64,000 nt of DNA from a virus. Below are positions 25,172 through 60,122 of this stretch, piece by piece. A program made the position numbers and the translations under genes. The first letter of the stretch is position 1. The number at the start of each line of letters is the position of its first letter. Where the stretch lies: the IMG/VR virus record IMGVR_UViG_3300033412_000008; one strand, 5' to 3'. The notes under the pieces were generated by a model. That model did not search any database, was not told the DNA's origin, and worked only from the letters and a program-made list of their open reading frames with translations.

Positions 25172-25309
25172 ATGAGTCCCCACGACATCATTCAGAAGGG
25201 GAAGCAGCGCTGGGCTATCATCTGGTGCCCCGAGAGGCGGCCTACGCAGGAGGCCGCTCAGCGGGAGATTAGGCGCCAAAAAAGCCGCGACCAGAGCCGC
25301 CGCCCGTAA
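25172..25309 (+). CDS. Small leaderless hypothetical protein
   Basis: TGC-TACGCT 7 nt before ATG. Confidence 0.45.
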   Translation: MSPHDIIQKGKQRWAIIWCPERRPTQEAAQREIRRQKSRDQSRRP

Positions 25310-27707
25310 CGAAGTCGCCGAGGCCAGTCCAGACCTCCGGGCGGGCCATGATGGCGGCCGGGGAGTCCGCGACCGCAGGCTCGTTGCGCACCAGAATGGC
25401 CTCGCGCAGGCGCGCCTCGTCTGTGGGGTCGTCGCGTTCGATGGTGACAATCTCAACGCCCTGGCCGCCCTCGTGGACGCGCCCCCAATGCGCGAGCATC
25501 TTGGCGGCGACCATGTCGTCGTGCCCGGTGGCCGCCTCGAACTGGTAGCGCCCGTTAGCCGTCAGCGTGAACTCGTAGCTCTCGAACTCCTCGCGCATGT
25601 CGCTGAGGACGCACGCGCGGCCGTGCTCCATGTCGGCGGCCAGGAGGCGGGCCATCTGCTCCTTCGACTGGTTCGTGAATTTGACGGGCGTCACGTCCAC
25701 CCCGGCGGCCGTCAGGTTGTCGTAGACCACGTCGCCGAGGCCCGTGGAGTCGATCATCGCGGTGACGCTCTCGACGCCGGGGGCGTCTTCCAGCTCGGCG
25801 ATGGCGTAGGCGATGCGATTCTGCTGGGTCGGCCAGTCGATCTGGTTGAAGCGCTCGAAGTAGCAGGGCATTCCGTCGTCTTCGCGGTCGGCGGTGATGA
25901 CGGTGAAGTCCTCCTGCTTCGCCAGGTCGATCCCGACGAAGACGTTACCGCGCGGCTCGACAATCTCGTCGATGAGGGCGCCGGGGCGCTCCAGGCCGAG
26001 GCCGAAGATCGAGGCGCCAGCGGCCAGGAATTCGGCCATAATCTCCTGCCGGAAGATGATGGTCGGGAGTTCGTCTTCGGCAGCGTCCGTCTCCTCCTGT
26101 GGGACGAAGGGGTTGGCGGTCTGTGGGAAGCGCCATGACTCGTAGCCGGGCTTGCCTTCCTGACCGAGCTTCCACATTTTCCAGAACCAGTTGTGTCCAC
26201 GCGGCGTGCTGATGATGAACGCCTCACCGCCGGTGTCCATGAGGGTCGGCCGGATGAGCTGCTGCCAGACGTTGTCGGGAATCAGGGCTGCCTCGTCTAC
26301 GACGACGAAGTCCACACCCTCGCCAGCCAGCGAGTCGGGTGAGCCGCCCGAGTAGAACTCGATCATCGTGCCGTTCTTGAGCTGAAGAATCTTCGTGGTG
26401 CTGGTGTACGCCGGGGCAGGCTTCGCCAGCCATGACGGAGGAATCTGGTTGACGACCTCACGGTAGCCACGGGAGACGTTCTTGTAGGTGTTGTGGCTGA
26501 GTAGATATCCAGTTGTTACGTAAAGATGGTCAGTAGCCTCTACTTCTATACAAACCATGTCACATTTATCATTTGTGGGGCGAATATCAATGATTTGCCG
26601 CCGGGAAGCGCGAGGTACGGCGCTCCAGTCTACTGACTTACGAGCACAGTAAAATGGGCAAGTATCCGGCATTGATACCCTTGTACGCCATATACGACCA
26701 TCATGCATAACCGTTGCGCGGCCGCCTAGTGAGCGCGTCAAATCAGCGACGCCACGCGCAAGGCGCTCAGACTTTGATGTAAATTGAACGCCGCCAGATG
26801 CGTTACCGCCGTCAGTATCAAGTAGTCCCGCTAGGACATCGGCGCGATATTTTGCTGGCGCTTGTAGTACAACCATAGGAAGAAACTTAGATTTGGAGCG
26901 TACATCTACTAGACCAACTTCGGAAAGCTGGCGGCGTAGACGTGAAGCATTAGATATCCCGAAATTTATTGGCCCATAACATTTCCATGTGGCACCAGTG
27001 TCTTCTGCTGCATCGCGTACACGAGCAACGATGTCTGCATCTTGATTGGCAAATAGAAGCGTTTGTTTCTCACGAATACAACCATCCCCCAGCATTGCGC
27101 CTAGTAGATAGCCATCAACTTTGGGCGCCTTACCATCAGGAACAGGCGATGCATTATCAATTGAAAACCGACTACGTCCACATGGTTGTCGAAGACCGCG
27201 CTTAAGTATCTCTTTAGTTTTCAATGTACGCGCCGCATTGTGGCCCAACTGCCGCACACGCCAAAGATGATCGTCGGCGCAGCGCACAACTACACCATCC
27301 GACATTTCTACTTCCCATACCTCGCGTTCGGAATGGGCATATACACCCAAAACTTTAGTTGGCTGTCCATCACTACCAATTACAGCGTCGCCAACTTTCA
27401 ATGCTCCCATCGTGCCCCAACCATTCGGCGTGAGAACTGGCTCGTCAAGTGGTTGTGCATTAGCGATCCACCAGATCATTTGGTTCGGCCTGCGCGCCCG
27501 GCGCACAATTTCGTGGGCGGCGACCTTCGTCTTCCCCCAGCGCCGCCCAGCGGCCAGAGTGCGGAAGCGAGCCTCCGAGTTGAGGATGTTTTCCTGGCCG
27601 CCGGAGTGCGGGATCAGAAGGCGGCTGCGGAGTTCGTTGCGGGCGCGCTCTAGCGCCTCTGGGTTGTCGCGGCCTAGTGCTTCGACCCGCTGACGCTCAT
27701 TCGGCAT
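25269..27707 (-). CDS. terL: Terminase large subunit containing an intein
   Basis: AGRRWGKT, VVVDEAA, IISTPRG, GIDLA, HDDMV. Confidence 0.92.
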   Translation of the reverse strand: MPNERQRVEALGRDNPEALERARNELRSRLLIPHSGGQENILNSEARFRTLAAGRRWGKTKVAAHEIVRRARRPNQMIWWIANAQPLDEPVLTPNGWGTMGALKVGDAVIGSDGQPTKVLGVYAHSEREVWEVEMSDGVVVRCADDHLWRVRQLGHNAARTLKTKEILKRGLRQPCGRSRFSIDNASPVPDGKAPKVDGYLLGAMLGDGCIREKQTLLFANQDADIVARVRDAAEDTGATWKCYGPINFGISNASRLRRQLSEVGLVDVRSKSKFLPMVVLQAPAKYRADVLAGLLDTDGGNASGGVQFTSKSERLARGVADLTRSLGGRATVMHDGRIWRTRVSMPDTCPFYCARKSVDWSAVPRASRRQIIDIRPTNDKCDMVCIEVEATDHLYVTTGYLLSHNTYKNVSRGYREVVNQIPPSWLAKPAPAYTSTTKILQLKNGTMIEFYSGGSPDSLAGEGVDFVVVDEAALIPDNVWQQLIRPTLMDTGGEAFIISTPRGHNWFWKMWKLGQEGKPGYESWRFPQTANPFVPQEETDAAEDELPTIIFRQEIMAEFLAAGASIFGLGLERPGALIDEIVEPRGNVFVGIDLAKQEDFTVITADREDDGMPCYFERFNQIDWPTQQNRIAYAIAELEDAPGVESVTAMIDSTGLGDVVYDNLTAAGVDVTPVKFTNQSKEQMARLLAADMEHGRACVLSDMREEFESYEFTLTANGRYQFEAATGHDDMVAAKMLAHWGRVHEGGQGVEIVTIERDDPTDEARLREAILVRNEPAVADSPAAIMARPEVWTGLGDFVTGGGSGRGFFGA
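26490..27458 (-). mobile_element. Class 3-type intein with LAGLIDADG endonuclease (323 aa)
   Basis: Starts AQPLDEPVLTP, block B DDHLW, block F MVCIEV, ends SHN/T; LGAMLGDG and LAGLLDTDG motifs; low GC. Confidence 0.88.
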
Positions 27708-49025: not shown

Positions 49026-49085
49026 GCCCCTCCTGTTCGATCAGTTGTTCAGTTCATTGCATATCCAGCATATCGCAGGCGTCAA

Positions 49086-49160
49086 ATCCGGGGGCAGGGT
49101 TCGAACCTGCACTTCGAGGTTCAGGGCCTCGCTGGCTGCCAATTACCTTATCACCCCGGA
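49086..49160 (-). tRNA. tRNA-Gln(CTG), atypical
   Basis: TCCGGGG/CCCCGGA acceptor, CGAGG-CCCTGAA-CCTCG, GCAGG-TTCGAAC-CCTGC; C33 and extra nt before the D-stem. Confidence 0.7.
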
Positions 49161-49161
49161 G

Positions 49162-49238
49162 TGGACTAGCTCGGATTCGAACCGAGGTCACGACTGCGCC
49201 CACGTCGTGGGCGCAACTCGTCTTTTCCTGTCTAGCCC
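49162..49238 (-). ncRNA. Mini-tmRNA (tRNA-like domain only)
   Basis: GGGCTAG/CTAGTCC-A with G3.U70, stemless D-loop ACAGGAAAAGAC, P2-like hairpin, GAC linker, CTCGG-TTCGAAT-CCGAG. Confidence 0.75.
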
Positions 49239-49244
49239 ACAACC

Positions 49245-49263
49245 ATCTTATCGAGTTGGTCAA
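49245..49263 (-). promoter_or_regulatory. TTGACC-N7-TAAGAT promoter of the mini-tmRNA
   Basis: -10 ends 6 nt before G1 of the RNA. Confidence 0.65.
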
Positions 49264-49269
49264 GGTTTA

Positions 49270-49698
49270 TCAAGCTGCAATATTCAAACGAATATACTCC
49301 TGCCGCTTTGCTTGGCAGCAGGCTTCGCACCGACATCCTTTCTTATACATATGAGTAGTCCCACAGCGCGCAGGCTGTCGAGGGCGCGCCACAAATCCAT
49401 TCAGCGCGGAATCAATTTGAGCTTGGCGCCGCTTGCTCATATACGGGCGCAGTTCATGCATCATTTTGGCTGCCGGGCTTCCTTGCAAACGCACATACCA
49501 GGGCTGCTTATGGTGCGCAATCTGCCGCCGTCCCACTTGAATTTTCCTGTCCCACAGCGCTGCGACACGTTCAATTACATCTAGGTCAGTCATGGACACG
49601 ATAACAATCGGATTATTCGGAGAAGATGGCGATCCAGCCATAAATGATCCCTCTCCCTCCAAGAGTCCAACCAACCAATGAAAATCAGCCGCATTCAC
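49270..49698 (-). CDS. Free-standing LAGLIDADG homing endonuclease
   Basis: WLVGLLEGEGSF; C-terminal CGT..Y..GCRC..C; leaderless GTG after TGC-TATGCT. Confidence 0.8.
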   Translation of the reverse strand: MNAADFHWLVGLLEGEGSFMAGSPSSPNNPIVIVSMTDLDVIERVAALWDRKIQVGRRQIAHHKQPWYVRLQGSPAAKMMHELRPYMSKRRQAQIDSALNGFVARPRQPARCGTTHMYKKGCRCEACCQAKRQEYIRLNIAA

Positions 49699-49801
49699 AA
49701 ATAAAGCATAGCATAAATTGGGAGCATGGGATTCAAGCGCGTTGATGCTCAATCCCGAACGGAGAGCGCTACCAGATTACGCTACGGCCCGAAAACGAAG
49801 T

Positions 49802-49960
49802 TTAGCGCTTACGGCTGGGCTTGCCGCGGCGGTACGAGTCCACCGTGACGCGCGACTTACCGCGATTCGGGCCGCGCGGGGACCGCGAGTGCTTACGCAC
49901 CCCGACAGCATTACCCGAGCCGGACTTCCGGCGCCGCTTGGCGCGCCCACGGGTCGCCAT
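49802..49960 (-). CDS. Small very basic protein (52 aa)
   Basis: MATRGRAKRRRKSGSGNAVGVRKHSRSPRG...; TAATG coupling; not in the ORF track. Confidence 0.55.
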   Translation of the reverse strand: MATRGRAKRRRKSGSGNAVGVRKHSRSPRGPNRGKSRVTVDSYRRGKPSRKR

Positions 49961-53336: not shown

Positions 53337-53411
53337 TAGCGGGGGCGGGATTTGAACCCGCGTGACCGGCTTATGAGGCCGTGCTGGAACCAAACTCCAG
53401 TCCACCCCGCT
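53337..53411 (-). tRNA. tRNA-Met(CAT)
   Basis: AGCGGGG/CCCCGCT, CTCATAA loop; fMet-like body but lacks the three G-C anticodon-stem pairs. Confidence 0.85.
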
Positions 53412-53417
53412 GCCTAC

Positions 53418-53436
53418 AGCATATCGTCCCTGTCAA
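53418..53436 (-). promoter_or_regulatory. TTGACA-N7-TATGCT promoter of the tRNA cluster
   Basis: -10 ends 6 nt before tRNA-Met position 1. Confidence 0.65.
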
Positions 53437-60043: not shown

Positions 60044-60122
60044 GGCGGCGCCGTGGCAGCACTAGCGTAGCCGGTGGCTCTACCCAGGGCCAGCCGTCGG
60101 GGTTCGATTCCCCGAGCCGCCA
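60044..60122 (+). ncRNA. tRNA-like RNA without anticodon loop
   Basis: GGCGGC/GCCGCC-A plus TCGGGG-TTCGATT-CCCCGA (12-bp top half); TGGCTCT-ACCC-AGGGCCA hairpin in place of the anticodon arm. Confidence 0.55.

Follow-up and report, generated by a model that had tools for sequence, protein, structure and literature searches.

A putative tmRNA-like RNA reduced to its tRNA-like domain in the head module of an uncultured soil phage clade

The window analysed here, a stretch of 64,000 nucleotides from the IMG/VR virus record IMGVR_UViG_3300033412_000008, is part of a tailed-phage genome with genes for portal, head protease, major head protein, tape measure and terminase. Within its head module the order is portal, small open reading frames (ORFs), HNH endonuclease, a pair of RNA genes, a 122-aa ORF, protease and capsid, and all annotated genes at this locus lie on the minus strand. 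The first gene of the pair encodes a 77-nt RNA, to which we refer as the mini RNA, and its architecture fits the tRNA-like domain (TLD) of transfer-messenger RNA (tmRNA) without an mRNA-like domain. The second one is a tRNA-Gln(CUG). Trans-translation, the pathway in which tmRNA acts, is the main route by which bacteria rescue ribosomes and exert quality control, and it is also a drug target. The features of the locus are listed below, one per line, where A2 is an alignment of seven homologous mini RNAs, R1 a covariance model of related RNAs and MFE the minimum free energy structure, all described further on.

49162..49238, minus strand: putative TLD-only tmRNA-like RNA gene, 77 nt, with G1 at 49238 and A73 at 49162 (fold, covariation, R1 score)
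49232..49238, minus strand: acceptor 5' strand GGGCUAG, which pairs with 49169..49163 and carries G3 of G3.U70
49222..49231, minus strand: stemless D-loop analogue ACAGGAAAAG, 10 nt, with A10, G11, G12 and G17 invariant in the clade (alignment A2)
49190..49221, minus strand: closed central hairpin in the place of an anticodon arm or of tmRNA helix 2 and the mRNA-like domain (MFE)
49187..49189, minus strand: linker GAC ahead of the T stem, with the A invariant and the last base C or U
49170..49186, minus strand: T arm CUCGG-UUCGAAU-CCGAG, with compensatory changes in four of five pairs and 100% of cells paired
49162..49169, minus strand: acceptor 3' strand CUAGUCC and discriminator A73 (sequence, covariation)
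49161..49161, minus strand: single C spacer, a C in six of seven homologues and absent in contig L005
49086..49160, minus strand: tRNA-Gln(CUG) with U1-A72, directly downstream of the mini RNA (Rfam tRNA 33 bits over 49157..49089)
49245..49263, minus strand: promoter-like motif TTGACCAACTCGATAAGAT, which ends 6 nt ahead of G1 and holds TTGACC-N7-TAAGAT
49067..49085, minus strand: second copy of the motif, just after the tRNA-Gln, heading the 122-aa ORF, protease and capsid genes
53418-53436, minus strand: further copy of the motif

Read on the minus strand from 49238 to 49162 the mini RNA is GGGCUAG / ACAGGAAAAG / 32-nt closed hairpin / GAC / CUCGG-UUCGAAU-CCGAG / CUAGUCC / A, which is the sequence and layout quoted in an initial annotation that had proposed a phage mini-tmRNA from the sequence alone. 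The acceptor has 7 bp including G1-C72, G2-C71 and G3.U70, and A73 is the discriminator. As described there the D-loop has no stem and contains a GG, located at positions 11-12, but the GAC that had been placed at its end mostly belongs to the first pairs of the central helix (A18-U49 and C19-G48), which covary, and it is not conserved in the homologues. The GAC linker ahead of the T arm had been recognised correctly: its A is invariant in both of our alignments (A51 in A2, A52 in A3) and C53 of A3 is at least 90% conserved. RNAfold predicts an MFE structure made up of exactly the acceptor, the long hairpin with its 3-nt loop and the T arm at -38.4 kcal/mol, compared to -23.8 +/- 3.2 kcal/mol on average for shuffles of the same sequence (z = -4.62; 0 of 200 shuffles equally stable), and this agrees with the closed hairpin that had been placed where tmRNA would carry its mRNA-like domain. 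In this structure the hairpin consists of 4 bp, an internal loop, a 10-bp upper stem and the loop. As just these 32 nt lie between D-loop and linker there is no space for a tag ORF, and the mRNA-like domain is absent. ARAGORN called neither the mini RNA nor the adjoining tRNA-Gln in the window, and no tmRNA. A protein-coding reading of the mini RNA was rejected, the overlapping ORFs being spurious and the pattern of variation RNA-like.

Homologues were sought via the portal protein and not via the RNA, which gave six contigs with 76-83% portal identity, five viral ones and one more from a metagenome. All six carry a homologous RNA 0-1 nt upstream of a tRNA-Gln(CUG) (L001 3842-3920; L002 8208-8291; L003 8240-8321; L004 3329-3404; L005 3441-3504; L230 5792-5875). 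Together with the window, where the single C at 49161 gives the distance of 1 nt stated initially, mini RNA and tRNA-Gln are thus paired in seven of seven contigs. More distant relatives with 45% portal identity possess the tRNA-Gln and lack the mini RNA. Covariation among homologues had been suggested as a check, and it was found: over the acceptor, the T stem and the three basal pairs of the central helix (15 pairs in the seven sequences of A2) 98% of cells are paired and nine pairs show changes on both sides, which none of 500 shuffles matched. Sliding the partners by 1-3 columns in either direction lowered the pairing to 26-50%. Acceptor pairs 5 and 6 occur as four and three Watson-Crick types, respectively. 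In all seven sequences G1-C72, G2-C71, G3.U70, C4-G69 and A73 are invariant, as are A10, G11, G12, G17 and the linker A, and G3.U70 is kept although a single U-to-C change would yield a stronger pair. While the three basal pairs of the central helix covary, the rest of the hairpin differs wholly in length and sequence among the homologues, which makes it a stub and not an anticodon arm. ARAGORN calls a tRNA-Val(AAC) in two siblings; we rejected a decoding tRNA-Val, the loop being absent from the other five sequences. In L004 a truncated extra copy of the mini RNA, reaching from the 5' strand through the T loop (2895-2965), is broken by an HNH endonuclease ORF (2978-3316) that is followed by the intact copy, and this looks like a homing-endonuclease insertion into the RNA gene.

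The mini RNA is a real, conserved phage RNA gene and not a chance structure. It is very improbable that there is no RNA function at all and that the locus holds a chance hairpin, an intrinsic terminator of the plus strand or an attP-like piece of a tRNA or tmRNA gene from the host. A terminator-like site does exist on the plus strand at 49195-49215, where the complement of the hairpin is joined to a T-rich run, and phages integrating into ssrA carry 3' fragments of this gene (background mentioned in PMC9004378). However, the T-run is specific to the window and the annotated genes there all run on the minus strand, and the compensatory changes in acceptor and T stem speak for selection on pairing rather than on resemblance to a host gene. 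None of the ORFs that were scanned was recognised as an integrase.

Upstream of the mini RNA the initial annotation had noted TTGACC-N7-TAAGAT as a promoter. It does end 6 nt before G1 and is part of a conserved motif, but its N7 gap is not the -35/-10 spacing of sigma-70. The motif of about 19-21 nt has the consensus TTGAC-N6-cGATAnaCT-GG. Both in the window and in four of six relatives it ends 6 nt ahead of the first nucleotide of the mature mini RNA; L230 keeps the TAnnnT part only, and L004 has its intact mini RNA without the motif. In relatives it also precedes tRNA-Ala and tRNA-Met, again 6 nt before the mature ends, and ORFs at a less fixed distance, and the position of the second copy (49067..49085) precedes tRNA-Ala(UGC) in most of them. 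The pattern TTGAC-N8-TAnnnT was observed nine times in the window compared to 0.68 expected. In the window alone a TTGATA also lies upstream of this TAAGAT, at the canonical distance of 17 nt. From its conservation and position the motif is very probably a promoter with the start at or next to G1, and since the 7-nt gap between the hexamers does not fit sigma-70 it may be a phage-specific promoter type.

For the family assignment we relied on covariance models. The window mini RNA reaches 20.3 bits on the Rfam tRNA model (cut-off 29), with the D and anticodon regions taken as large insertions, and this model finds one of the five sibling mini RNAs. On the Rfam tmRNA model (RF00023, gathering cut-off 47 bits) four of the five siblings score 27-32 bits, each being the best match of its record, although ordinary tRNAs reach 27 bits on the same model and these scores therefore discriminate weakly. 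The Rfam mt-tmRNA model RF02544 gave no match at E <= 10 in the five sibling contigs. A direct precedent for such a mini-tmRNA had initially been missed: Hudson, Lau and Williams (2014, PMC4131195) list a 'Mycobacterium phage DS6A (TLD only)' tmRNA, which also appears in the 2025 tmRNA database paper of the same group (PMC11915505). We located this RNA at JN698994 28478-28560 (tmRNA Website entry 'Phage__Mycobacterium.9'), where it is unannotated in GenBank, and it scores 43.2 bits on the Rfam tmRNA model.

In order to extend the comparison IMG/VR was scanned by two patterns for anticodon-less alanine-type tRNA-like RNAs, and many more were found; all counts for this wider family come from pattern scans and are not a census. 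Two of these RNAs, L164 (67 nt, 54.6 bits) and L152 (79 nt, 50.3 bits), pass the Rfam tmRNA threshold without an mRNA-like domain and carry the canonical GGUUUCGAC...GGAC motifs, and L138 reaches 41.2 bits. From 22 anticodon-less RNAs including that of DS6A, with the window clade left out, the covariance model R1 was built. It ranks the seven clade RNAs first with 39-57 bits, the window copy having 47.5 bits at an E-value of 1.5e-6, which like all R1 E-values is rough. True tRNAs score at most 28.4 bits, among them the tRNA-Ala of these phages with its identical GGGC/GUCC ends. The mini RNA is not a tRNA. It groups with the TLD-only tmRNA of DS6A under this independent model, as the proposed TLD architecture without mRNA-like domain would predict, and judged by architecture and family it fits a diverged member of this kind of phage RNA. 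Lacking the mRNA-like domain that defines tmRNA, it does not qualify as a full tmRNA.

Several points weigh against this assignment. The window copy stays under every Rfam threshold, and its match to the tRNA model lies slightly above a hidden overlapping match of the same clan, of which tmRNA is a member. Sibling L004 is unmatched by the Rfam tmRNA model. The canonical tmRNA D-loop UUCGAC is absent, the window having AAAAGA, and position 4 is C4-G69 and not the usual G4-C69. Finally, most training members of R1 were ascertained by a pattern that requires GTCCA. Of the searches that had been suggested as checks, Rfam gave a score under threshold for the window copy and ARAGORN no call, while L164 and L152 pass on the Rfam tmRNA model.

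The second of our scans fixed only the 5' strand and the T loop and left the 3' strand free. Among its 44 unique candidates with at least six acceptor pairs position 70 is U in 38, C in five and A in one, two of the C cases being artefacts with a real tRNA inside, and 42 candidates have A as the discriminator. G3.U70 and A73, on which the initial annotation had built, thus predominate in the wider set and are invariant in seven of seven clade members. Uncultured phage contigs from soil, freshwater and the sea hold dozens of different versions, which mostly keep the alanine identity set. With GTCCA forced in the pattern 22 matches were obtained in 185,579 bacterial species genomes, mostly on short contigs of metagenome-assembled genomes (MAGs), and one match in a Microbacteriaceae MAG has the acceptor GGGCUAG/CUAGUCC, identical to that of the window.

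Two further groups of such RNAs deserve mention. The viral L238, L272 and L281 and L349, a contig of Arthrobacter sp. PsM3, form an anticodon-less subfamily with the conserved middle …GCUGAAACCAA…CCCCC…GGAAGUA…; three of them have G3-C70 and so would carry no alanine identity, and the Arthrobacter copy has G3.U70. The other is an aquatic phage group (L133 3675-3900, L128, L147, L152 and about 25 other viral contigs), in which a TLD-like RNA is joined directly to a conserved structured leader of about 110 nt with a CUCC, pseudoknot-like stems and a hairpin with a C-rich loop. Downstream of this leader follow a GGGAG Shine-Dalgarno sequence, a phrog_7813 protein (probable scaffold) and then the major head protein. 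It is the TLD of L152, a member of this group, that exceeds the Rfam tmRNA threshold. No consistent peptide was found as a tag ORF downstream of the aquatic TLD, and TLD plus leader had no match in INPHARED or Rfam. In at least two unrelated lineages such RNAs stand in front of the capsid-assembly operon.

This arrangement bears on a different explanation, namely a decayed or re-purposed tRNA-Ala paralogue that takes no part in trans-translation and mainly acts in cis, as RNase P or RNase Z 'punctuation' or as a stabilising element in front of the tRNA-Gln and capsid unit. In every case the mini RNA directly joins tRNA-Gln, with the head-morphogenesis genes following shortly after, the second phage group has its TLD-like RNA joined to the leader of the putative scaffold (phrog_7813) and major capsid operon, the acceptor ends GGGC/GUCC are common to the minis and the phages' own tRNA-Ala(UGC), and the window holds other anticodon-less tRNA-like RNAs. 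We nevertheless regard it as unlikely: a processing signal requires neither G3.U70 nor A73, both of which are invariant, and it is the D-loop and linker features that split the minis (39-57 bits) from tRNA-Ala (<=28) under R1. Moreover, most relatives have a tRNA-Ala(UGC) right after the tRNA-Gln, whereas the window and L005 have lost it and kept the mini RNA. The tRNA-Gln itself extends by its U1-A72 acceptor from 49160..49087, has its discriminator at 49086 and is separated by one C from A73 of the mini RNA.

Around the locus there are other traces of tRNA genes. The HNH ORF lies at 49270-49752 (-), and a stretch at about 49740-49795 (-), just upstream of its start and overlapping it, resembles a decayed tRNA-Pro by eye; no tool calls a tRNA there in the window, and L004 has an intact tRNA-Pro(CGG) at the matching place. 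The ARAGORN label 'tRNA-Ala (agc) at position 27' was given to 53337-53411 (-), for which the anticodon loop read by eye is CUCAUAA, giving the anticodon CAU (Met/Ile2 type), so that the window is left without a tRNA-Ala. Upstream of the tRNA region a very basic ORF of about 50 aa rich in R and K (49805-49960, minus strand) is conserved (L007 1812-1976) and kept even in distant relatives without the mini RNA.

Further genes of the window encode a family-A DNA polymerase, an SNF2 helicase and a primase, and the large terminase (25269-27707, minus strand, 812 aa) has a LAGLIDADG domain inserted at about residues 288-338, probably an intein or a homing-endonuclease insertion. An RNA ligase (PF09414, 15632-16291, plus strand) and an RlaP RNA-repair nucleotidyltransferase (PF10127, 17851-18513, plus strand) lie in the early region and suggest RNA or tRNA repair during infection. 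Megablast against isolated phages gave no close relative of the window, its portal and DNA polymerase are at most 27% identical to those of any isolate, and blastn matched T-arm fragments only. The locus was found in whole or in part in 11 sequencing runs, all of them soil or rhizosphere DNA metagenomes with no RNA run among them. No prophage host came up when bacterial genomes were searched with the portal, and an exact 15-mer search of viral contigs gave chance matches only. Weak actinobacterial hints come from the protein comparison with isolates, from the Microbacteriaceae MAG (L348) and from the Arthrobacter contig.

Two more tRNA-like RNAs without a normal anticodon arm were seen in the window. 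One at 989-1065 (+) scores 37.5 bits on the Rfam tRNA model, is called tRNA-Ser(CGA) by ARAGORN and has a homologue in L230 (2795-2877); the other at 60044-60122 (+) has 6 bp in the acceptor and as many in the T stem.

That one genome encodes several tRNA-like RNAs lacking a usable anticodon, along with the RNA ligase and RlaP, could point to a decoy. In this reading the mini RNA would act as a sponge for some host factor that is not SmpB, such as a defence nuclease directed at tRNA or tmRNA, alanyl-tRNA synthetase (AlaRS) or a tRNA-sensing system, in concert with the other anticodon-less RNAs and the repair genes, and it would suit this idea that the homologues retain the elements of the elbow and vary freely in between. 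We consider it quite unlikely, as no defence system is known to be directed specifically against the acceptor, D-loop or T-loop part of tRNA-Ala or tmRNA, and the closest structural match is the tmRNA TLD with its known partner SmpB; the decoy is purely inferential.

G3.U70 and A73 form the identity set of AlaRS, SmpB binds the elbow of the TLD and EF-Tu binds the aminoacylated acceptor and T helices. By these rules the mini RNA is probably, if by no great measure, a stand-alone phage TLD like that of DS6A that interferes with host ssrA tagging through SmpB. According to this model the mini RNA would be transcribed together with tRNA-Gln from its own promoter-like motif with little or no 5' leader, and hardly any trimming would be needed to mature it. 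A cut by RNase P at the 5' end of tRNA-Gln would leave A73-C74, the spacer being a C in six of seven homologues, and the CCA enzyme would complete the end. Charging with alanine would be expected from the invariant G3.U70 and A73 and the identity rules of AlaRS, and the elbow of D-loop and T-loop with its conserved G and A-Y, which may form a non-canonical G...A junction, would bind host SmpB. An SmpB gene was not found in two related contigs of 60-70 kb, so any partner must be the SmpB of the host. Without resume codon, tag ORF and pseudoknots the RNA would offer no template for a degradation tag. Its action would thus be limited to competition with the tmRNA of the host, over SmpB and perhaps also over EF-Tu and stalled ribosomes, leading to less ssrA tagging during infection.

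Published results support inhibition by analogy. A molecule similar to the DS6A RNA is reported to inhibit tmRNA strongly whether chargeable or not, perhaps by titrating SmpB (PMC4131195, citing Mao et al. 2009), and for the DS6A form itself an inhibition of the endogenous tmRNA has been described in E. coli (PMC11915505, with reference to Mao et al. 2009). The first of these also counts against our model, since an inhibition that needs no chargeability (Hudson et al., PMC4131195) would under pure titration of SmpB leave the strict alanine identity unexplained. In addition, the presence of RNA-repair genes and of at least two more anticodon-less tRNA-like RNAs in this phage could indicate a different, tRNA-centred purpose. 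The strict alanine identity hints that charging matters, and this speaks for competition at the ribosome or a tag-free rescue rather than simple sequestration of SmpB.

Such a productive rescue is unlikely in our view. The TLD charged with alanine would go into stalled ribosomes along with SmpB and EF-Tu and take over the nascent chain, and the complex would be resolved with no degradation tag, as has been proposed for mitochondrial tmRNAs without mRNA-like region. Phage proteins from damaged mRNAs would then escape proteolysis and ribosomes would be recycled. This rescue would account for the alanine identity in seven of seven clade members and, by U70, in 38 of 44 RNAs of the wider set, which is needed for charging and not for inhibition (PMC4131195), and tmRNAs without coding sequence (CDS) that co-occur with SmpB have been described in jakobid mitochondria and two plastids (PMC11915505). 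The RNA ligase and RlaP also suggest that the phage expects RNA damage. However, no mechanism is known by which the chain could be terminated and released in the absence of resume and stop codon, the sole experiment cited for the phage form in PMC11915505 reports inhibition and not rescue, and the Rfam mt-tmRNA model does not match the siblings. As a speculation, RNA ligase and RlaP fit a phage facing RNA-damaging defences, where stalled ribosomes and tagging of phage proteins are problematic.

What is new here is a diverged relative of the DS6A RNA that is conserved in an uncultured soil phage clade with covariation and strict alanine identity. As far as the phage entries in the two cited papers (PMC4131195, PMC11915505) go, a natural TLD-only tmRNA is reported for DS6A only, with one report of inhibition in E. 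coli. With many more such RNAs in viral metagenomes they appear far commoner in phages than this single published case suggests, and a phage strategy of interfering with ribosome rescue, possibly a common one, becomes open to test. It is possible, and we propose it tentatively, that TLD-only tmRNAs are a widespread and hitherto overlooked class of phage genes whose products would be charged and enter stalled ribosomes with host SmpB, a dedicated viral device to switch off or bypass ssrA tagging during late protein synthesis, possibly against RNA-cleaving defences. For annotators they form a concrete class, as ARAGORN misses the mini RNA or, in two siblings, calls it a tRNA-Val(AAC), and most scores on the Rfam models for tRNA and tmRNA lie under threshold.

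Among known systems the RNA of DS6A is the one to compare first. Both are phage-borne RNAs of about 80 nt with a 7-bp acceptor, G3.U70, A73 and a stemless D-loop containing GG, both have a short closed hairpin in place of the mRNA-like domain and a short linker, the T arm of DS6A being UUCGAUU, and both fall into one covariance-model family. They differ in that DS6A has the canonical motifs, a GGGG start and GGUCGAC, whereas the window RNA carries GGGC and AAAAGA and gets its higher score from the tRNA model. The DS6A copy lies between small ORFs and a DNA polymerase III gene and that of the window adjoins tRNA-Gln in the head module. The two phages are unrelated with no DNA match, in line with the low identity of the window portal and polymerase to any isolate.

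With the one-piece tmRNA (ssrA, RF00023) the mini RNA shares the acceptor with alanine identity, about ten unpaired D-loop positions with GG, a helix right after them and the T loop UUCGAnU, and in sequence also what may be the '...A-C' junction to the T stem (consensus GGA-C). In contrast it is without pseudoknots, resume codon and tag ORF, so that about 318 consensus positions are missing, it stays below the gathering cut-off and CCA is not encoded. Canonical tRNA-Ala has G3.U70, A73 and the T arm in common with it, and the tRNA-Ala(UGC) of these phages also its GGGC/GUCC ends, whereas the mini RNA lacks the D stem, has a 3-nt loop instead of the 7-nt anticodon loop and differs in the central arm in every homologue. 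The CDS-less tmRNAs of mitochondria (jakobid, oomycete) and Mallomonadaceae plastids (RF02544) are likewise reduced to the tRNA-like part and thought to work with SmpB without tagging (PMC11915505), and two plastid ones of about 65 bp were added in the same paper. They differ from the mini RNA in being organellar, their model does not match the siblings, and they arose by reduction of a resident tmRNA gene, whereas the RNA described here is an extra gene brought by a parasite.

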